This document shows positions 43,227 to 53,845 of a stretch of 64,000 nucleotides of DNA, one piece after another. The DNA is from Syntrophorhabdaceae bacterium. Lineage in GTDB: Bacteria > Desulfobacterota > Syntrophorhabdia > Syntrophorhabdales > Syntrophorhabdaceae. Below the pieces are notes generated by a model that did not search any database, had not been told where the DNA came from, and saw only the letters and a list, made by a program, of their open reading frames with translations. A program made the position numbers and the translations under genes. The stretch spans positions 4,544,001 through 4,608,000 of the forward strand of contig OY762209.1 in the NCBI GenBank assembly GCA_963665295.1. Direction: 5' to 3'. Position 1 is the stretch's first letter, and the number at the start of each line of letters is the position of its first letter.

Positions 43227-44132
43227 CTAAAAACCTCCCCAGAGGTAATCCTCCCTGGGATTGGGGTATTCGTCCTCCAACCATCTCCTGACAGCCCGTT
43301 CCATGTATTGGAGTCTCGGCGAGACGATGCACTCCCCGGTCATGACATGGTATTCGAGGGAGCACGATTCTTTCTCTCCATGCCCTGCGGACACCACGAA
43401 TATGTCGCTCTCGTGCTTCATGGACCCCCGAATCCTTCTCACCCTGTCAAAATCCGTGACCTCGCCCCGGATGTGATACGCGGTTTTCCCTTCGTCCCTG
43501 TAAATCGTCCTGATGCAGCATTCAGGCAGGGGTTCGGGTTGAAACCCGGGCAGCATATCTTCTATCTGTTCGATAATCTCCGACCGGCATTGCCGCTCCG
43601 GCGCGGAGCCATCCCGCCATCTGCCTCTTTCCGGTTCGTAGAGGTGGCGTTTTCCATCGAAGAAGACCAGCACCTCGTAGATTTCCGCGTATTCGTCGTA
43701 ATCGTCCGCAAACACGGTAAGTCTCCTGCCCCGGACAAAGGCTGTCGCTTTGTGAGAGTAAAGATAAAAACCCTTTGCCGCCTTCGCCGCCTCATCGAGC
43801 GCCTCCCGGTACTCTCTGAATACCTCCGGCAGTCCGCCTCCCTCGAACATCTGCCCTACGAGGTGCCGACAGAGCCTGCGGGGATCGTCCAACCGATAGC
43901 CCGTCCTGTATCCGGTAAAATCGGGACACGAGCACGTAAGAGATGACCGGGCTTCCCGGTCCGGGGATTTTTGGCGGGAACCCCGTCCCGTCAGGACATA
44001 CAGACTATGGCCCATTCCTGACCAGCCACGCGAAACCCAGCCCTTCCTTGCGCCGGCGGGCAGCCTCCAGTAATCGTAGAGCACCCATACCACAAGGGCT
44101 GCTAAAGATATTACGACTAACGCGCCGCCCAT
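43227..44132 (-). CDS. Membrane-anchored hypothetical protein with a SWIM-like zinc finger
   Basis: N-terminal TM helix; CSCPDF…LCRHL (CxC-xn-CxH). Confidence 0.7.
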   Translation of the reverse strand: MGGALVVISLAALVVWVLYDYWRLPAGARKGWVSRGWSGMGHSLYVLTGRGSRQKSPDREARSSLTCSCPDFTGYRTGYRLDDPRRLCRHLVGQMFEGGGLPEVFREYREALDEAAKAAKGFYLYSHKATAFVRGRRLTVFADDYDEYAEIYEVLVFFDGKRHLYEPERGRWRDGSAPERQCRSEIIEQIEDMLPGFQPEPLPECCIRTIYRDEGKTAYHIRGEVTDFDRVRRIRGSMKHESDIFVVSAGHGEKESCSLEYHVMTGECIVSPRLQYMERAVRRWLEDEYPNPREDYLWGGF

Positions 44133-44458
44133 CTTGCCCCTGCCTCGACGGGCCCGGCGCGTGAATCATCGCGAAGGCTACCGGTCGCCGATTTTTTTGC
44201 GTGGAATAACCATAGTTTGTCTAATGTAAAATTGGATAATCCTATAAGAAAGCAGCGCGACATGCTCTTCTACTCCGCTTGGAGGCTTTACCGCTCTCCA
44301 CCCGCCGTCACTGCCCATGCGGCCTGACCTGGTCCGGAAAACCGGTATTGTCTCTTATAGAATGTTCTCATAAGACCGTGCCTTTGTCAACCCTTTTTGC
44401 CGCGAATAATGTGTTGTAATCCCCATTGATCTGTAATAGAATGACCGTCAATCGTCAT

Positions 44459-46615
44459 ATGGCAACCCACGCCCGCCCGAAGCTCCATAGGAAGAACGTC
44501 ACCAGGAACACGTTGTTTTGGTGTCTGGTCACCCTTTGCGTCGTGAGTTTTTTCCTGTCCCTCACATTCATTGCCGGCCACTTCTCCTATAAGCGCCGCA
44601 TCGCGGAAAATACCAGGAATCAGGCGATCTTTCAAACCGCCAAGGCAGCGGAAAATGTTAACGCCGCATTCGCGCGTCACATGTCAACGGCTAATGAAAT
44701 AGCGAAAGACCTCACCGAAGGCAGACTGTCCCGGGAAGAAGTCATGGCAAAGGTCAGGGATAAGGTAAACCGTAATCCCCACATACACGGCATTGCCATT
44801 GCCTATAAGCCCTATGCCTTCAGTCCGGGAACAAGGCTCCATGCGCCCTATTATTCGAGGAAGCTCGACAAACTCCAACTCATCGGGGTGGAGTCGCTCT
44901 ACGACTATACAAAGCCGGAATGCGATTGGTTCTCCTTGCCCCTTGAACAAGGCGCCTCCTGGATCGAGCCCTATTTCGGACAGGCCGGCGGCGCCCTCAT
45001 GACGACCTATTCCGTCCCTTTTCACAAGACCGACCCTGCGACCAACAGCAAGGTGCCCATCGGCGTGGTTGCCCTTGACATATCCCTCGACGAGGTAAAG
45101 AAGATAGTCGAGTCCATCGATCTGGGGTCCGGCGGATATGGGGCGGTGATATCAAAGAAAGGGATTTACCTGTACCACCCCAGCTACGAGTTCGTAAGGG
45201 ACCGAAAAACGGTCCGGGAAGTGGCGGCAAAATTCAACGATAGAGACCGGGTCCTCGCCGCCGAAAAGGCCCTGACCGGCGAAAGAGGGCTTATCGATCA
45301 CAAGAGCGTCACTACAGGATATTCCTCCTGGCTTGCATTCGAGCCCATACCCTCCACCAATTGGTCGCTTCACGGCACCTTCATCAAGGACGACGTGCCC
45401 GTCGATTTCGATGTTATGCGCCGGCAATTGATGCGCGTAGTCCTTGCATCGATGATCTTCTTCCTATCCCTCCTGTCCCTCGTTCTTAAGATCTACCAGG
45501 GGGATAACGGCAAGCTCTGGAAGGCGTCCGCCATAGGTTCGGCCATATTTCTGGCCGGCATAGGCCTTGTCTGGCAACTCGCCCTCTCCTACGACTCGGA
45601 CGTACAGGTCAAGGGAACAAAGATAGGGGCCCGGATCAACCTTGCCAACTTTGTCCACTCCTACGACAGGAAGTCGGTCGATGCCCAGGGGACTGCCCCT
45701 CTATACGTTCCCACGGGTATTTTCGTGCACTCCATGGAGTTCTCCGGAGTGAACAAACTCATGGTAAACGGGTTTATCTGGCAAAAGTATAACGACACCT
45801 TTACGGGGATCGAAAGAGGGTTCCTTCTCCCCGATGCGGTGGACGAGGCTGCCATCAAACAGGTATATTCCGGCAAGGCGGGTAATGCGACGGTAATCGG
45901 TTGGCATTTCTCCGCGACCCTTTACGAGCATTTTGACTACTCGAGTTACCCCGTAGACCATGAAACCATAAAGATACGCATAGCCCCTAAGGATATGGGC
46001 AAAAACGTGGTGTTCATCCCTGACCTCGATTCATACAAACTCTTGAGCCCCGGCGTTCTTCCCGGCCTGGATAAAGAATTCGTCCTTCCGGACTGGAAGA
46101 TCAAGGGCACCTTCTTCGAACTCAGATCGAGGGCCTATAATACCAATTTCGGGATCAAGAGCCATCTCGGACAGGACAGCTTTCCTATGCTCTACTTCAA
46201 TATCACCATAGTAAGAAACCTCATGGATGCGTTTATCCGCAATATGACGCCCCTCATTATCGTGGTTTTGCTTCTCTTCGCCGTAATGTTCATTTCCACC
46301 GAAGAAAGAATGTCCAAAAAGTTCTCCATGGACATCGGGGAAAATCTCGTCTTCGTAGGGTCGATGTTCTTTGTCCTGGTCTTTACCCATATCAGCACCA
46401 GGGCGAGGATTCCGACCCAGGAGATATTCTACCTTGAATACTTCTATTTCACCATGTATATCGCCCTTTTGTGGGTCCCTATAAGCTCCATCCTGTTCGT
46501 TACGGGCAGCAACATGTTTTATGTGCAATACAAGGATAACCTTATATCGAAGCTGCTGTACTGGCCCTTGATACTGGGCGGGCTCTTTGCCATCAGCTTC
46601 ATCACTTTCTACTGA
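44459..46615 (+). CDS. dCache sensor fused to a pentameric ligand-gated ion channel-like module
   Basis: TM + dCache (DWF…WIEPYF…MTTYSVPF…GVVALDISL), two TMs, then Pro-loop YPVD, PDWKI, pre-M1 IVRN and four TM helices. Confidence 0.8.
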   Translation: MATHARPKLHRKNVTRNTLFWCLVTLCVVSFFLSLTFIAGHFSYKRRIAENTRNQAIFQTAKAAENVNAAFARHMSTANEIAKDLTEGRLSREEVMAKVRDKVNRNPHIHGIAIAYKPYAFSPGTRLHAPYYSRKLDKLQLIGVESLYDYTKPECDWFSLPLEQGASWIEPYFGQAGGALMTTYSVPFHKTDPATNSKVPIGVVALDISLDEVKKIVESIDLGSGGYGAVISKKGIYLYHPSYEFVRDRKTVREVAAKFNDRDRVLAAEKALTGERGLIDHKSVTTGYSSWLAFEPIPSTNWSLHGTFIKDDVPVDFDVMRRQLMRVVLASMIFFLSLLSLVLKIYQGDNGKLWKASAIGSAIFLAGIGLVWQLALSYDSDVQVKGTKIGARINLANFVHSYDRKSVDAQGTAPLYVPTGIFVHSMEFSGVNKLMVNGFIWQKYNDTFTGIERGFLLPDAVDEAAIKQVYSGKAGNATVIGWHFSATLYEHFDYSSYPVDHETIKIRIAPKDMGKNVVFIPDLDSYKLLSPGVLPGLDKEFVLPDWKIKGTFFELRSRAYNTNFGIKSHLGQDSFPMLYFNITIVRNLMDAFIRNMTPLIIVVLLLFAVMFISTEERMSKKFSMDIGENLVFVGSMFFVLVFTHISTRARIPTQEIFYLEYFYFTMYIALLWVPISSILFVTGSNMFYVQYKDNLISKLLYWPLILGGLFAISFITFY

Positions 46616-48032: not shown

Positions 48033-51000
48033 TCATATTACTTCCGGTGCGAAGCCACGGCGCGCGGTGTTTTCCGTTACCACTCTCGAGTCCATGAAGT
48101 GCAGGAGGTACTCCGGACCACCCGCTTTCGTTCCCAATCCTGAAAGTCTGAAACCTCCGAAGGGCTGGCGCTCGACCAGGGCCCCCGTGATAGGGCGGTT
48201 CAAATAGAGGTTCCCCACTCTGAATCTACGCCCCGCCTCTTCCAGATTTCGCGGGCTTCGACTGTAAACGCCGCCCGTCAGCGCGAATCGGGTCGAGTTG
48301 GCCCACCGGAGGGCCTCGTCAAAAGTCTTCACCTTCATAACGGCAAGGACAGGGCCGAATATCTCCTCTTCGGCAATTACATGCCCGGGGAGAATGTCTC
48401 CTACGATGGTGATGGGCACATAGTTGGCTCCTCCGGGGGTTGCCCCTGAAAAGAGTATCTTTCCTTCCTGCCGGGCGATCCCGATATATTTCATTATCCT
48501 CGCCCGGGACGCGTCATCGGCTACAGGCCCTACGCTGAAAGCGGGGTCGTCGGCGGGTCCAACACCCAGGGCCCTCGCGGCTTCTATCAGCCGCTCCACG
48601 AAGGTATCATAAATGGAGGAAAGGACTATCACGCGGGAGCACGACGAACATTTCTGACCCTGAAATCCGAAAGCCGAAGTGAGGACTCCGGGAATGGCCT
48701 CGTCCAGGTTGGCATCCGCATCGACAATGATGGCGTTCTTGCCGCCCATTTCCGCGATCACCCTCTTTACATACCCTTGCCCCTCAGCGACAACGGCCGC
48801 CTTTTCCACAATGGCGAGACCCACCCGGGTAGACCCCGTGAAGGCGATGGTACTCACCATGGGATGGTCGGTCAAATACTCGGCGATCACCTCCGTCCTG
48901 CCCGGCAGAAAATTGAATACCCCGCGAGGGAGACCCGCCTCGCGGAAGGCATCCGCAAGTTGACGGCCTGTAACCGGAGTCAGAGGGGACGGCTTGTAGA
49001 CCACAGAGTTGCCCGTGACGATGGCCGCCGACACCATACCGCTGCTGATGGCGAGAGGAAAATTCCACGGCGCGATCACTACAGTCACACCCCTGGGCTC
49101 ATAGAAATAATGGTTTGATTCCCCCGGGGGCGACGGGAGACGCCTTGCCGTTCCCAGGCGCACCATCTCGCGGGCGTAGTATTCCATGAAGTCGATCGCC
49201 TCGGCCACGTCCGCCGATGCCTGGTCCCATTGTTTTCCTATCTCCAGGACCTGCCCGGCCGCAAGTTCGTATCTTCTGGAACGCAAGGCCGCCGCCGCCT
49301 TAAGAAGAACGCACGCCCTTTCATCGGCCTTCGTATCCCGCCATGTCTCGAAACTCTCCCCCGCCGCCCGGATGGCGTCCTCAGCCTCCTCTATGCCTGC
49401 CTGACAGACATGTGCGATTACCTCACCGGGATCGGCCGGGTTCAGGGAAGGGACCGTATCGGAAGTCGTCATGTCTTTGCCGTCGATAAAGAGGGGACAA
49501 GTCTTCCCCAGGTTGCGGCGCACCGAAGCCAGGGCTTCTGCAAAGAACTCCCTTTCCTTTTTCTTCGTGAAATCGGAGGGAGGTTGGTTCTTGAAAAGCC
49601 CCATGACGCACGACGTATCACGGGTCCCCTTGTCCCCCTCCTGTGCTCTCGAAGACACACCTCCGGCGGTCTTGCACTGGGCGTCCGATGGGTCCCGGAG
49701 GAGGCTCGCCATGTCGGCCCCCTCGGCAAACATGAGGCGGAGGAAACTCTGGTTGGCCGTATTCTCGAGCAAGCGGCGCACCAGGTACGCTATGCCGGGC
49801 ACAATCGGACCCAAAGGGCAGTAAACCCGTACCCTGCCTCCCGGGCCGACGAGGGTTCTCAGTACAGGCTCGGCCATCCCGTAGAGTACCTGGAACTCGT
49901 AACGGTCCTGGGGAACGCCCATATGGTCCGCCATCTCAAGGACCGCGGCGATGGAACGGATATTGTGTGAACCGCATGCCAGATAGGAGGTCTCATGGTT
50001 CTCGAGGATCAGACGGGCATGCCGCTCAAAAGCGGCATCCGTTTCCGCCTTTCCTGTGTAAACCGGTACCTCCCACCCGTTCTGCCGCGCCCGCATGATC
50101 TCGTAGTCCCAGTACGCGCCTTTGATCAACCTGATGCTGATGGGCAACCCATGTTGCCGCGCCCAGCCAAGAAGGTCCCGGAGGTCCCGGTCCGTATCGG
50201 GGAGATAAGCCTGCATGGCGATGCCCAGGTGCGGGTAATCCGGGTATTCCAGTCGAAGTCTCCTGTAGACCTCCAGGAAGATATCCTTGTCCTGGTATGA
50301 TTCCATATCGATGGTCAACGCCCCTCTTACGCGGATCACCTTCTCATACACCCCCCGAAGGCGTCCAAGAATGCCCGTAACGGATCCCTCGAAATCCAGG
50401 GGCCTCGTCTGAGAGTAAAGAGAGCTTGGCTTGAGGGACACACTGATCCTGGGGGCGTACCCCCAGTCAAGCGTGGTTCCGCGGCCGTTCAGGGATGTCC
50501 AACCCGCCGCGGCCTTTTCCAGCGTGTCAAGGAGGGAGATGTAGAGATCCGCGTACTGTTCGGCCTCTCTTTCACTCAAGACGGCTTCACCGAGTATGTC
50601 AATGGAAAAAGCGCACCCCGAACGCCTTATCCGCGACAGGCCCTTGAGGCTTTGAGCAGCCGTTCCCCCCACTATGAACTGCTTTCCAAGTTTGTTGATA
50701 CTATAGCGGATGGCGCTACCCAGAAAGGCCGCCCCCACCCAACCCGTCTGTTGGGCAACCCGTGTGCCCAGGCGCAAGGCCACAGGTAACGACGGGTCCT
50801 GATTATCGAAATACTCACCGAGATGGCGGGTAAGCAGACGAGACGTGGTAAGAGAAGGAAAAACATCGACAAAGCGAAGCAGCCTGGTACGGAAGTCGTC
50901 ATGCCTGAGAGACCAGTCCATCATCCGGCCCACCCACCGGCCCGTTTCGAAGACGGAGGGTTTCTTCCCTTCCATAGACTTAAACAGTTCCTCGCCCCGC

Positions 51001-51035
51001 CCTATTATTCTCAGATTCAGTTCGTCCCGGTCCAT
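48033..51035 (-). CDS. putA: Bifunctional proline dehydrogenase / P5C dehydrogenase
   Basis: DILGE, IDME, RLIKGAYWD, YLVRRLLEN; ALDH motifs PWNFP, EMGGKN, QKCS, EEIFGP. Confidence 0.95.
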   Translation of the reverse strand: MDRDELNLRIIGRGEELFKSMEGKKPSVFETGRWVGRMMDWSLRHDDFRTRLLRFVDVFPSLTTSRLLTRHLGEYFDNQDPSLPVALRLGTRVAQQTGWVGAAFLGSAIRYSINKLGKQFIVGGTAAQSLKGLSRIRRSGCAFSIDILGEAVLSEREAEQYADLYISLLDTLEKAAAGWTSLNGRGTTLDWGYAPRISVSLKPSSLYSQTRPLDFEGSVTGILGRLRGVYEKVIRVRGALTIDMESYQDKDIFLEVYRRLRLEYPDYPHLGIAMQAYLPDTDRDLRDLLGWARQHGLPISIRLIKGAYWDYEIMRARQNGWEVPVYTGKAETDAAFERHARLILENHETSYLACGSHNIRSIAAVLEMADHMGVPQDRYEFQVLYGMAEPVLRTLVGPGGRVRVYCPLGPIVPGIAYLVRRLLENTANQSFLRLMFAEGADMASLLRDPSDAQCKTAGGVSSRAQEGDKGTRDTSCVMGLFKNQPPSDFTKKKEREFFAEALASVRRNLGKTCPLFIDGKDMTTSDTVPSLNPADPGEVIAHVCQAGIEEAEDAIRAAGESFETWRDTKADERACVLLKAAAALRSRRYELAAGQVLEIGKQWDQASADVAEAIDFMEYYAREMVRLGTARRLPSPPGESNHYFYEPRGVTVVIAPWNFPLAISSGMVSAAIVTGNSVVYKPSPLTPVTGRQLADAFREAGLPRGVFNFLPGRTEVIAEYLTDHPMVSTIAFTGSTRVGLAIVEKAAVVAEGQGYVKRVIAEMGGKNAIIVDADANLDEAIPGVLTSAFGFQGQKCSSCSRVIVLSSIYDTFVERLIEAARALGVGPADDPAFSVGPVADDASRARIMKYIGIARQEGKILFSGATPGGANYVPITIVGDILPGHVIAEEEIFGPVLAVMKVKTFDEALRWANSTRFALTGGVYSRSPRNLEEAGRRFRVGNLYLNRPITGALVERQPFGGFRLSGLGTKAGGPEYLLHFMDSRVVTENTARRGFAPEVI

Positions 51036-51271
51036 CTTCCTCCTTGAGTTGAGAAATTTTCTTTCCGTCCTATGAATATAAGTCTTGGGAAACAGCGCGT
51101 GCAAGCTCGTGGAAGGGCTTGCGAGCAGCCGGAGTTGCGGCCGGGAGCGACCGCCATGCGCGCTTGATTCCTTATCCTTGACTTTGCCTTCCGTCTGCCG
51201 TAATATCGTCCCATGACGCGCCGCCTGCGGATGGGCAGCACGTACAGGTCATCACGTAACCTGGAGGAGAT

Positions 51272-51928
51272 GTGAGGACAACCTTATTCTTGTCGGATGA
51301 TCACGTTATGGTCAGGGAGGGCCTCCGGTTGTTTCTGGACGGCCAGCCTGGGTTCAACGTCATAGGGCAGGCCTCTGATGGACACGAAACAGTCAGGCAG
51401 GTGCTCAGGCTCAAGCCCGATGTGGTGATTATGGACGTCATGATGCCCGAGCTTAACGGCATCGACGCAACGCGGAAGATTTGCGAGGCAATTCCGTCGG
51501 CAAAGGTGATTATCCTTTCCATGTACGCGAGCAATGAGCACGTTTTTCGCGCCTTCAAGGCGGGGGCGAGCGGGTACGTCCTGAAAGAGATGGCCGGCGA
51601 AGAGCTTGTCCGTGCAATAGAGACGGTTCGCTCGGGAAAACGTTACATTTGTGAAAACATTTCAGGACCCCTCATAGATGACTACATAAAGTACCGGCTG
51701 GCAAACGGAAAACCCGACGATCTCGAACAGTTGAGCGAGAGGGAGCGCGAAGTGCTCCAACTGGTGGCTGAAGGCAATTCGAACAAGCAGATTTCCGGGA
51801 AACTCTCCCTTTCTCCAAGCACGGTGGCAAGCTACCGCTCGCGAATGAAGCAGAAGCTCGGCATAGACGATATATCGGAACTGATCAAATTTGCCATCAG
51901 GCATGGCCTGACATCGGTGAAGGAATAG
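51272..51928 (+). CDS. NarL/LuxR-family response regulator (orphan)
   Basis: DDH…MDVMMP receiver domain and LSEREREVLQL HTH. Confidence 0.93.
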   Translation: MRTTLFLSDDHVMVREGLRLFLDGQPGFNVIGQASDGHETVRQVLRLKPDVVIMDVMMPELNGIDATRKICEAIPSAKVIILSMYASNEHVFRAFKAGASGYVLKEMAGEELVRAIETVRSGKRYICENISGPLIDDYIKYRLANGKPDDLEQLSEREREVLQLVAEGNSNKQISGKLSLSPSTVASYRSRMKQKLGIDDISELIKFAIRHGLTSVKE

Positions 51929-52076
51929 AGACCTCCTCAATAAGGACTCTCGCCACAATCTCTCCCGCATCTATCTTCTTGTACGCGTAAAAGACGTCCC
52001 TGTACGCAAGGACGGTGGCAATCCCTATCTCGCCGTATCCTCCGAGAACCAGGATATTCTTTCCTTTGATCTCCAT
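51897..52076 (-). pseudogene. Collapsed remnant of a Rossmann/SDR-like dehydrogenase gene
   Basis: 59-aa ORF MEIKGKNILVLGGYGEIGIATVLAYRDVFYAYKKIDAGEIVARVLIEE… with strong RBS taaggagg; starts with a GGxGxxG NAD-binding motif but is far too short for the fold. Confidence 0.65.
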
Positions 52077-52087
52077 TGAATTCCTCC

Positions 52088-53845
52088 TTAGTTGTTTTTG
52101 GTGACCCCGGCGGTCCGACTCGCCCTCACCCTATGCAACTTGCTGTGTTTTCTTCCGTACGCCAGGTAACAGCCCAACCCGATGACGAGCCATACAGAGA
52201 AACCAAGCCACGTAGTTCGTCCCAGTTCCGTCATCAAGTAGAGGCATATTTCCAGACCTGCCAGGGGAATGAGTGAAAGCCTTTTCCTGAAACTGACGTA
52301 CGCCAGAAGTGCCGACACAGCCGCGAACCCTATCACGTGGGGATACCTCCACAGGACAGCCGCTTCACGGGGGCTGAAGATGCAGCAGGCCGAAGCGATG
52401 ACAAGGAGGGCGGGGGTGAAGATATACCGGGAATCGATATAGGGGACCTTGAATTTGCCCCGTGACACACTCTTGTCTTCCTCAAGCACCAGAACGCCTC
52501 CACACACAAGGGCAAAGGCAAACAGCGTCCCTATGCTGCAAAGGTCGGTCACGTCGGCGAGATTCATCAGTTGCGACGGGACGATCACCACCGCGCCGGT
52601 AAAGAGCGTTGAGAACCACGGGGTACCGAACCGCGGGTGAATTGCGTGAAATATGGAGGGGAGCAGGCCGTCCCGCCCCATGGACATCATAACCCTGGAC
52701 TGGCTGATGGCCAGAGCGAGAATGACTGTAGCCATGGTTACCACTGCGCTTGCGGCAACGATCCCCGCGATCATCCGGGCGTTGGCGCCATTCCCTGAGA
52801 AGGCGGCCACCAGAGGGTCGCCCACCCGGAGGTCCTTGTAGTTCACGGCCCCTGTCAGCACAAGGGCGAGAGCAACGTACAGAAAGGTACAGATCAACAG
52901 TGAATAGATGATCCCTCGAGGGAGATCACGCTGGGGGTTTCTGCACTCCTCGGCAGTATTTGATATGGCGTCAAATCCTATATATGCGAAGAAGACCCCG
53001 GAAACCCCTTTCAACACGCCGGGCAACCCATTAGGCGCGAAGGGGCTCCAGTTTTCCTGGCGCACGTAAAACGCACCCGCAATAATGACCAGGAGAACTG
53101 TCGCCGTCTTTATGGTGACCAGGCCATTGGTGATGCGCTTTGATTCCCGTATGCCCGTGTAGCTGACCGCAGTGAGGAGGACGACTACACAGAGCGCGGG
53201 AAGGTCGAGGATGGGCCGGATTCCGAAGACAAGGGGTGCCTCGTTCCATGCATGGTATCCGCTCAGGGCGAAGGACATCCCCGGAATCCGGCCGATAGTC
53301 TCCAAGGTGTGACCCTGGCTGAGAAGCTCTCCTATCTTTTGGACGCCTTTCGATGCCGAAAAATAGTCCATGCTCAGGAACCGGGGAAATTCAATGCCGT
53401 AACCCGAGATGAGGCTCGTAAAATAGTCGCTCCATGAAATGGAAACGGCGCTTGCCGCCACGGTATACTCCATAATAAGGTCCCAGCCGATCACCCACGC
53501 GATCACCTCTCCGAAGGCGGCGTAGGAATAGGTGTAGGCTGAACCCGCAATAGGTATGCGTGAAGCGAAGTCCGCGTAGCAAAGGGCGGAACAACCGCAC
53601 GCCAGGCCCATAAAAATACAGAGAAATACAACTGCGGGTCCTCCCCAGTATGCGGCGTTGCCGATAGTGGAAAAGATCCCCGCCCCCACGATTACGGCAA
53701 TGCCGAAGGCCACAAGGTCGGTCAAACCCAGCTCCCGGCGAAGCCCGTCCGCGTCGGATGAACTTCCGCCCGCATGGCAGTCCGCCCTTCCATCGGTAAG
53801 GATCATGGAGAGGTCTTTCTTGCGGAGCAGATCACGGAATTTCAT
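52088..53845 (-). CDS. APC-family amino acid permease (cationic amino acid transporter type)
   Basis: GAGIF, GSAYTY, FFAYIGFD, AEEC.NPQRDLP; RBS aggagg. Confidence 0.93.
   Translation of the reverse strand: MKFRDLLRKKDLSMILTDGRADCHAGGSSSDADGLRRELGLTDLVAFGIAVIVGAGIFSTIGNAAYWGGPAVVFLCIFMGLACGCSALCYADFASRIPIAGSAYTYSYAAFGEVIAWVIGWDLIMEYTVAASAVSISWSDYFTSLISGYGIEFPRFLSMDYFSASKGVQKIGELLSQGHTLETIGRIPGMSFALSGYHAWNEAPLVFGIRPILDLPALCVVVLLTAVSYTGIRESKRITNGLVTIKTATVLLVIIAGAFYVRQENWSPFAPNGLPGVLKGVSGVFFAYIGFDAISNTAEECRNPQRDLPRGIIYSLLICTFLYVALALVLTGAVNYKDLRVGDPLVAAFSGNGANARMIAGIVAASAVVTMATVILALAISQSRVMMSMGRDGLLPSIFHAIHPRFGTPWFSTLFTGAVVIVPSQLMNLADVTDLCSIGTLFAFALVCGGVLVLEEDKSVSRGKFKVPYIDSRYIFTPALLVIASACCIFSPREAAVLWRYPHVIGFAAVSALLAYVSFRKRLSLIPLAGLEICLYLMTELGRTTWLGFSVWLVIGLGCYLAYGRKHSKLHRVRASRTAGVTKNN

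Follow-up and report, generated by a model that had tools for sequence, protein, structure and literature searches.

Ion channels of the pentameric ligand-gated class (pLGICs) are central drug targets, and the bacterial members GLIC, ELIC and DeCLIC serve as structural workhorses for them. How an accessory domain controls a pLGIC pore is still an open question in the field. We describe a gene in a 64,000-nucleotide stretch of a Syntrophorhabdaceae bacterium (contig OY762209.1, positions 4,544,001 to 4,608,000, hereafter the window) that encodes a 718-amino-acid (aa) fusion of a double-Cache (dCache) sensor to a pLGIC module. Its product is probably a subunit of an inner-membrane Pro-loop (pLGIC) channel, likely assembled as a homopentamer, with a Cache sensor of its own. 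Homology, fold and modelled interfaces support this interpretation; the pentamer, its conduction and selectivity, the identity of its ligand, and the route and sign of coupling are what we infer.

The closest described architecture comes from the purely computational work of Tasneem, Iyer, Jakobsson & Aravind (Genome Biol 2004/2005), which reported fusions of MCP-N, Cache and ART-LGIC modules in Methanosarcina, Cytophaga and Microbulbifer. These were proposed to be multi-ligand allosteric receptors in chemotaxis, with accessory domains that pre-concentrate or sense ligands subsequently bound by the ligand-binding domain (LBD) (Tasneem et al. 2004). The present protein resembles them in having an N-terminal hydrophobic segment, a Cache-type sensor, an LBD and a channel of four transmembrane (TM) helices in the same order. 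They also share a sporadic occurrence across distant phyla, including Methanosarcina, from which several loci of the present family derive. In contrast, the passage of that text on domain order places the extra domains 'between the signal peptide and the LBD', with no mention of a hairpin such as that formed here by TM2 and TM3. The protein matches the clade of Tasneem et al. in domain order and taxonomic spread.

DeCLIC, a calcium-sensitive, Desulfofustis-related channel, is the only pLGIC with an N-terminal domain (NTD) that has been partially characterised to date (Fan et al. 2025). It is similar in that a large periplasmic N-terminal accessory domain makes up about half of the subunit mass, and in DeCLIC this domain modulates gating. 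The DeCLIC NTD, however, consists of two jelly-roll beta lobes that are continuous with the extracellular domain (ECD) and has no extra TM helices, whereas the NTD described here has a dCache fold with two TM helices of its own and is joined to the channel via a third. DeCLIC was not among the top structural matches listed for either the channel-half or the full-length model. GLIC, the proton-gated channel of Gloeobacter violaceus (3eam, 5heh, 6zgk), has neither an N-terminal sensor nor extra TM helices. An earlier reading of this DNA, made without database searches (the sequence-only reading), had stated that Cache-bearing prokaryotic pLGICs are known bioinformatically and poorly characterised, and both sources agree with it (Tasneem et al. 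2004; Fan et al. 2025). The Cache-pLGIC architecture itself is thus not new: the class was predicted in 2004 and never characterised at the bench. A literature search that did not cover subscription journals found no experimental study of a Cache-fused pLGIC; one paper on ethanol chemotaxis in Bacillus subtilis, which mentions both dCache and pentameric ligand-gated channels, seemed unrelated and was set aside. The value of the present locus lies in making a 20-year-old predicted class testable, with an abundant target, rather than in surprise.

The order TM - dCache - TM - TM - beta-rich domain - 4 TM, as proposed in the sequence-only reading, is borne out by hydropathy, Pfam and AlphaFold2 (AF2) models. 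The pLGIC motifs quoted there are all present, in the stated order, in the translated 718-aa protein. The gene and its parts are listed below, with the evidence for each in brackets; GLIC alignments were made with hidden Markov models (HMMs).

44459..46615, + strand: whole gene for the 718-aa dCache-pLGIC fusion protein (ATG start; stop codon 46613-46615)
44516..44572, + strand: TM1, residues 20-38, following a Lys/Arg-rich cytoplasmic tail (hydropathy; helix in the AF2 full-length model)
44573..45436, + strand: periplasmic double-Cache sensor, residues 39-326 (Pfam dCache_1 at 51-306; PDB profile and Foldseek matches)
45437..45586, + strand: TM2 (327-345), a 12-residue cytoplasmic turn (346-357) and TM3 (358-376) (hydropathy; AF2 model)
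45587..46219, + strand: pLGIC extracellular domain, residues 377-587, comprising a linker, an N-terminal helix (392-408) and a beta-sandwich (AF2 models; Foldseek)
45947..45958, + strand: Pro-loop signature Y497-P498-V499-D500 (aligned to GLIC YPFD by HMM)
46136..46156, + strand: loop C, Y560-N-T-N-F-G-I566 (family conservation; contacts in the three-copy model)
46214..46216, + strand: pre-M1 arginine R586 (HMM-aligned to the pre-M1 Arg of GLIC)
46220..46300, + strand: M1, residues 588-614, containing P598 (AF2 model; Pro spacing as in GLIC)
46301..46333, + strand: extended cytoplasmic M1-M2 loop, residues 615-625, in which a short helix is predicted (unpaired against GLIC in the alignment; AF2 model)
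46334..46408, + strand: M2, residues 626-650, the putative pore-lining helix (sequence anchors and modelled inter-copy contacts)
46430..46504, + strand: M3, residues 658-682, beginning Y-L-E-Y-F (residues 658-662 identical in 65 of 65 sequences)
46541..46609, + strand: M4, residues 695-717, with conserved W702-P703 and a periplasmic C-terminus (AF2 model; 65-sequence alignment)

A hydropathy scan gave seven TM-like segments (residues 20-38, 327-345, 358-376, 596-614, 629-647, 664-682 and 699-717), and the same seven-peak pattern was seen in 39 of 46 aligned homologues. TM2 and TM3 form a membrane hairpin that brings the chain back into the periplasm, and W354 and W372, in the hairpin region, are invariant across the 46 sequences. 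Given the basic N-terminal tail, the 12-residue TM2-TM3 turn and the other loop lengths, one topology fits: a cytoplasmic N-terminus, two large domains in the periplasm and a C-terminus that ends outside the cell. Both ligand-binding layers would therefore be periplasmic, and each subunit would contribute seven TM helices (35 per pentamer). An alternative in-frame TTG start is present at 44426 in the same long + strand open reading frame (ORF). A promoter/terminator scan around the gene gave counts in the range expected from shuffles (4 versus 2.3 and 2 versus 2.9) and favours neither start.

The channel half was analysed as a construct of the C-terminal 356 aa, of which residues 50-356 correspond to protein residues 412-718. 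A profile of six sequences (the construct and five short homologues) was searched against the PDB and gave a best E-value of 1.7e-4; all 60 listed chains were GLIC or GLIC chimeras, with the alignment running from the Pro-loop through M3. A second profile was built from 65 sequences, namely the construct and 64 of the 79 loci of the family scan described below (8 partial or interrupted and 7 arbitrary loci were omitted). It returned 69 PDB sequences at E<=1, the best 60 of which were all GLIC or GLIC chimeras (best 5.7e-5). An AF2 model of the construct, based on an alignment of 51 sequences (50 of them picked to spread identity among 120 listed homologues), had a mean predicted local distance difference test (pLDDT) of 87.2 and a predicted template modelling score (pTM) of 0.82, and showed beta strands followed by four long helices. 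Foldseek gave at least 500 PDB matches to this model at E<=1e-3, with GLIC best (9.9e-13; target-normalised template modelling score, TMt, 0.70) and with ELIC and GABA-A receptors also among those listed. Protein residues 412-718 superpose on GLIC 12-315 at 15-18% identity. As modelled, the region has the pLGIC fold, with a beta-sandwich ECD of ten strands and, after it, the four helices M1-M4 as a bundle, and is closest to GLIC; this was the outcome that the sequence-only reading had staked on structure prediction. The N-terminal ECD helix (392-408) lies outside the GLIC-aligned part. In the full-length AF2 model (46 sequences; pLDDT 85.4, pTM 0.75), the N-terminal half matches dCache sensors and the C-terminal half GLIC, and no listed chain spans both. 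The Pfam matches of the six C-terminal sequences, DUF6594 and FA_desaturase for example, were all at chance level and were set aside.

Conserved residues of the Pro-loop superfamily are also present. Table 1 of Jaiteh 2016 gives residues conserved superfamily-wide. The beta6-beta7 loop has [F/Y]-P-x-D at its tip, the Pro being absolute, and the Asp of this Pro-loop pairs in a salt bridge with the pre-M1 Arg (GLIC R192). Other signatures are a buried aromatic in beta9 (GLIC W160), the M1 14' Pro (GLIC P204, 77%) and the M2-M3 Pro (GLIC P247, 88%) (Jaiteh 2016). Five of the seven Table 1 signature residues (Y497, P498, D500, W546 and R586) are conserved in the present family. In the 65-sequence alignment, the Pro-loop has Tyr in 59 and Phe in 6 sequences at Y497, Pro in 65/65 at P498, and Asp in 45 and Glu in 18 at D500. 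The beta9 residue W546 (64/65) is HMM-aligned to the Trp of GLIC LTGW, and R586 is kept in 63/65. By HMM alignment, counted along the GLIC sequence, P498, W546 and R586 correspond to GLIC P120, W160 and R192. P598 of M1 is found in 54/65 sequences and lies 12 residues past the pre-M1 Arg, the same distance as in GLIC (192 to 204). Other residues are conserved specifically in this family: R648 (65/65), H644 (61/65) and Y-L-E-Y-F at 658-662 (65/65) in the membrane part, and W441 (65/65), Q442 (64/65) and loop C residues F564 (59/65) and G565 (65/65) in the ECD.

Assembly was modelled with three copies of the core (residues 48-356 of the 356-aa construct) using a 65-row alignment in three runs. 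The scores were 0.45, 0.42 and 0.43 (median 0.43), compared with 0.00 for the best control. Of 30 proteins solved as same-chain pairs, 20 attained the mark of 0.42, as did 1 of 23 solved as single chains. The runs agree in at least 91% of contacts, with a partner pLDDT of at least 73. In this model the middle copy contacts its two neighbours via opposite faces, giving an open arc and not a closed trimer. Loop C (560-566) lies on the neighbour's residues 60, 77 and 79 in construct numbering, the last of which is W441, and M3 and the M2-M3 loop of the + side lie against M1 of the - side. Contacts between the same residue of different copies occur at V631, S635, F638 and F642 (construct 269, 273, 276 and 280). 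What the three-copy model displays is a likeness to pLGIC assembly, not binding. Neither of the outcomes named in the sequence-only reading as refuting it was seen, the one on assembly being judged from three copies.

For M2 we propose a register in which G627 is -2', E628 -1', V631 2', S635 6', F638 9', F642 13', I645 16' and R648 19'. It derives from two sequence anchors rather than from a superposition: I651 is set as the bulky 22' residue and P652 as 23', the position of GLIC P247. The anchors and the same-residue contacts, which fall on the classical pore-lining positions 2', 6', 9' and 13', thus agree on an M2-lined pore. Glu at -1' and Asp at -4' give a slight indication that the predicted pore of this member would pass cations. 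The cytoplasmic M1-M2 loop is approximately 11 residues longer than that of GLIC and its columns are rich in indels across the family; this loop (46301-46333) is positioned at the inner pore mouth, the site where charge selectivity is set. Searches of the bacterium's own genome (98% complete, one 5.5-Mb contig), with the channel half and with a plain pLGIC from a relative (L026, below) as queries, found no second pLGIC. As the only such gene found in its genome, it favours a homomer.

In the sensor half, Pfam dCache_1 (PF02743) matches residues 51-306 with an E-value of 1.4e-16 and 61.3 bits against a gathering cut-off of 45, MCP-like_PDC_1 matches residues 99-214, and the double-PDC fold is flanked by TM1 and TM2. 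The MCP-N plus Cache portion of the previously described fusions is the present-day dCache_1. Foldseek matched the sensor half of the full-length model to 3lib with TMt 0.80-0.82 and a root-mean-square deviation of 2.4-2.7 A, with PctD (7prq) and PacA (7psg) also among the matches listed. In sequence comparison, the closest sensors of solved structure are ectodomains of histidine kinases (3lic, 6.1e-14; 3li8, 6.3e-13; 3lib, 1.2e-9). Among the matches listed, sensors of the dCache_1AM type (3LIB, PctD/PacA) belong to the best that the sensor half has in structure and in sequence. 3LIB, the sensor of a Methanosarcina mazei histidine kinase, is an amine-binding dCache_1AM domain (Cerna-Vargas et al., bioRxiv 10.1101/2023.04.06.535858). 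The outputs listed for such sensors, unlike the one proposed here, are kinases, chemoreceptors, cyclases and phosphatases, and the term 'ion channel' occurs 0 times in the main text of that preprint (bioRxiv 10.1101/2023.04.06.535858).

Amine sensors are without the carboxylate-binding Arg (PctA R126) of amino-acid sensors, and their AM_motif consists in PctD of W155, F188, Y189, M215, S217 and D235 with R103/D133, single mismatches abolishing binding (Cerna-Vargas et al., bioRxiv 10.1101/2023.04.06.535858). In an HMM alignment to PctB, the dCache_1AA Arg was not found in the present protein: C155 occupies the position of PctA R126, two residues before W157. Arg is not among the six commonest residues at this position in the 46 homologues (Y15 H7 Q4 E4 T3 C2). 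Y132, W157, F158, M181, T183 and D207 stand at the likely equivalents of AM_motif positions, as judged from alignment to 3lib. The W157/F158 pair, Y172, M181 and D207 are common to the sensor half and 3lib in the HMM alignment, and T183 stands where 3lib has Ser. The two positions of the W157/F158 pair are aromatic in 42/46 and 45/46 homologues. An amine-type ligand for the Cache domain is a lead, not a finding. It also differs from the case of ELIC, the amine-gated channel of Dickeya/Erwinia (8vuw, 6hjx), which has no Cache domain and takes amines at its own ECD site, whereas here the suggested amine concerns the Cache domain.

The protein belongs to a large family. A prokaryotic scan with one genome per species gave 264 relatives among 514 pattern matches, and 79 loci were kept. 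These come from Syntrophus- and Syntrophorhabdaceae-labelled metagenome-assembled genomes (MAGs; 57-65% identity), Acidobacteriota, Methanosarcina and relatives, cyanobacteria (Crocosphaera, Oscillatoria), Prolixibacteraceae, Halomonas, Nitrosomonas and others, with Bacteroidota and Gammaproteobacteria represented. The 73 ORFs that run clear of contig ends have a median length of 710 aa. When 1.84 billion cluster representatives were searched exhaustively with a profile, the matches numbered 2509 at E<=1e-3, 1649 at 1e-10 and, in clusters of 50% identity, 1237 at 1e-30. A long N-terminal extension is kept in 126 of the best 150 family representatives (at least 640 aa). Of 9 relatives tested, 7 have dCache-type domains, among them the 699-aa protein L056 of Methanosarcina; a Roseovarius protein of 376 aa and a Gemmatimonadota ORF of 453 aa gave none. 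Among 30 genomes of relatives, 15 match the protein, yet in only 5 of them do the matches cover the channel half: 3 have full-length orthologues at 57-61% identity, and in 2 the channel half was found at a contig end. The remainder match the Cache part only, in proteins of approximately 570-690 aa. The distribution of the gene is therefore patchy.

Two variants of the architecture are seen among the kept loci. The Roseovarius aestuarii protein (L066:5818-6948, 376 aa) has one N-terminal TM segment, an ECD and four TM helices, with no Cache gene nearby; we read the translations of its neighbours as trpC/moaC/moeA-like and lexA-like ORFs. At the other extreme, the proteins at L020:3229-7050 and L050:3232-7032 (Methanosarcina/Methanobacteriota MAGs) are approximately 1270 aa long, their dCache being preceded by approximately 550 additional N-terminal residues. 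Two stretches of these versions match MCP-like_PDC_1, a hint that one channel subunit carries sensor modules in tandem.

Several results count against taking the gene as a subunit of a Cache-bearing pLGIC. Curated models give no channel: no Pfam channel family matched the whole protein at E<=1, no Neur_chan family (PF02931/PF02932) matched the six C-terminal sequences at E<=10, NCBIfam LGIC_1 (NF033918) scored 15.6 bits against a cut-off of 500, and a single-sequence PDB search with the whole protein (phmmer) returned Cache-type matches only and no channel. The channel signal emerged only from profiles and structure, not from single-sequence searches. It might then be argued that the pLGIC resemblance is convergent or a modelling artefact and that the C-terminal half is an unrelated beta-rich domain with a four-TM bundle, given that curated families miss it and that identity to GLIC is merely 15-18%; set beside the profile matches to GLIC, the modelled fold and the signature residues in order, this is scarcely credible. 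The failure of the curated channel models is a limit of the models' reach and not a biological feature of the superfamily. With residues 370-718 as the query, 219 proteins were found at E<=1e-3 among 8000 scored candidates; nearly all are 700-750 aa, carry Cache Pfam domains only and are named 'hypothetical' or 'cache domain-containing protein'. These names, with the lack of a channel family in Pfam and NCBIfam, match the guess in the sequence-only reading that annotation would see only a Cache protein.

The same side of the balance includes features of the assembly, the pore and the sensor. The three-copy score is barely at the mark (0.43 versus 0.42) and was obtained with three copies and a custom alignment, unlike the calibration, and the pass may reflect the model's memory of solved pLGICs. 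Cache sensors usually act as dimers, which is at odds with a fivefold ring. The Cache pocket residue D207 is kept in only 27/46 homologues, and the existence of the core-only relative L066 shows that the Cache domain is not needed for the core. At the M2-M3 loop, Pro occurs in only 16/65 sequences (A 23, S 9), though P652 is present here, and at this position the family at large deviates from what is usual in the superfamily. The -1' position of the proposed register is not conserved among the 65 sequences (R18 G9 T9 E7 D6 K5), and selectivity can therefore not be generalised to the family. Positions 9' and 13', usually Leu or Val and in GLIC also different from the present residues, are both Phe here (Phe in 58/65 at 9' and 32/65 at 13'). 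A Phe at 9' is unusual and, placed as the register has it, would form a tight hydrophobic gate.

These bulky residues bear on whether the pore conducts at all. The pLGIC module could instead be non-conducting and serve the Cache sensor as a pentameric scaffold in the membrane or as a transducer of conformational change, which would accord with Phe at 9' and 13', with the lack of a conserved charged ring at the cytoplasmic mouth and of a widely kept M2-M3 Pro (16/65), and with the absence in this genome of an operon partner pointing to an ion-linked function. The residues that couple the ECD to the TM domain (Pro-loop, pre-M1 Arg, R648 and YLEYF) are, however, the best conserved, a pattern that selection on gating would produce; small or polar residues occupy the inferred 2' and 6' positions, as in working channels; and the protein has no cytoplasmic output domain that could take a non-ionic signal. 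We therefore consider a non-conducting module highly improbable.

For the channel as we interpret it, the following working is proposed. A small molecule would bind the membrane-distal pocket of the Cache domain, which looks amine-type and not amino-acid-type. The resulting movement would reach the channel core via the TM2-TM3 hairpin, via Cache-ECD contacts, or both, and would shift the closed-open equilibrium of the M2-lined pore, which in this member is predicted to pass cations. The strongly conserved intersubunit pocket between loop C (YNTNFG) and W441 may be the site of a second ligand. Gating of the channel by the Cache domain, as the term was used in the sequence-only reading, is something we infer; the domain may only modulate a channel whose agonist binds at the channel's own extracellular site.

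In the latter case the Cache domain would be an accessory modulator or ligand-capture module comparable to the DeCLIC NTD, and an agonist would open the pore from the intersubunit site of the ECD. Elements of this orthosteric site are among the most conserved in the family (W441 65/65, Q442 64/65, F564 59/65, G565 65/65) and face each other across the subunit interface in the three-copy model, and core-only relatives exist (L066, 376 aa, no Cache gene nearby). The precedents point the same way, in that the DeCLIC NTD affects gating kinetics rather than being the gate (Fan et al. 2025) and accessory domains were proposed to pre-concentrate or sense ligands bound by the LBD (Tasneem et al. 2004). 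On the other hand, the conservation of loop C could equally reflect assembly or docking of the Cache domain, and the long extension kept by 126 of the best 150 representatives is therefore under selection. We hold a purely accessory role to be possible but doubtful, and the observations themselves fit a gate and a modulator alike.

How that control would cross to the pore admits a more specific proposal, which is unlikely in its full form. An amine bound to a monomeric dCache would move TM2, and the hairpin, packed on the lipid face of M1/M3/M4, would lever the 35-helix pentamer; in relatives whose next gene downstream is a plain pLGIC, the two kinds of subunit would make up bacterial heteropentamers. 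If true, the protein would itself encode, in its hairpin lever, a counterpart of the lipid and anaesthetic sites through which GLIC, ELIC and GABA-A receptors are modulated. A through-membrane route of this kind would contrast with the periplasmic-surface route assumed for pLGIC accessory domains.

Loci of relatives provide the plain pLGIC. At 10 of 79 loci (including L026:7077-8177 and L032:7058-8155), a gene of approximately 366 aa lies within a few tens of bases 3' of the Cache-channel gene. The L026 copy matches a GLIC-GlyR chimera at 1.8e-5, and ELIC, GABA-A beta and GLIC much more weakly (E 0.025 and above); its YPLD aligns with the Pro-loop of the 718-aa protein. The L032 copy has a weak Neur_chan_LBD match (4.5e-4). 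Judged by these matches, the L026 gene is a plain pLGIC beside a sensor-bearing one, and such neighbours hint at bacterial heteropentamers. A second association involves a Peripla_BP_6 gene (periplasmic binding protein, PBP, type I), which adjoins the Cache-channel gene at 7/79 loci (e.g. L034:3582-4802) and is absent from the window; PBP-channel associations were reported earlier by Tasneem et al. 2004. At 7 loci (e.g. L018:7177-8214; Desulfurivibrio/deltaproteobacterial MAGs), a gene of approximately 345 aa is found directly 3' of the Cache-channel gene; it has no Pfam matches and is unrelated to the plain pLGIC.

The family, with 1237 clusters, is a large one in which the well-understood dCache fold is hard-wired to a channel via a membrane hairpin. 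Because standard annotation misses the channel half, surveys of Cache outputs and of bacterial channels under-count it. A member with a tractable ligand would provide a defined system for allosteric coupling from a sensor to a pLGIC pore. Such a member would also bear on the purpose of fast ionotropic signalling in non-motile or syntrophic anaerobes.

In the window, the gene is flanked by genes on the opposite strand and is therefore probably monocistronic: a 301-aa ORF lies upstream, and an S49 (SppA-type) peptidase and PutA lie downstream. None of the adjacent genes within the 64-kb window suggests a functional partner for the channel. The upstream ORF (43227-44132, - strand) is divergent from the channel gene and matches no Pfam family at E<=1e-4; its CxC...CxH pattern may recall a SWIM zinc finger. 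Just downstream of the channel gene, the region 48033-53845 carries on mixed strands the PutA, which is of trifunctional type (PutA_N + Pro_dh + Aldedh, 1023 aa), together with a LuxR-family response regulator and an amino-acid permease.

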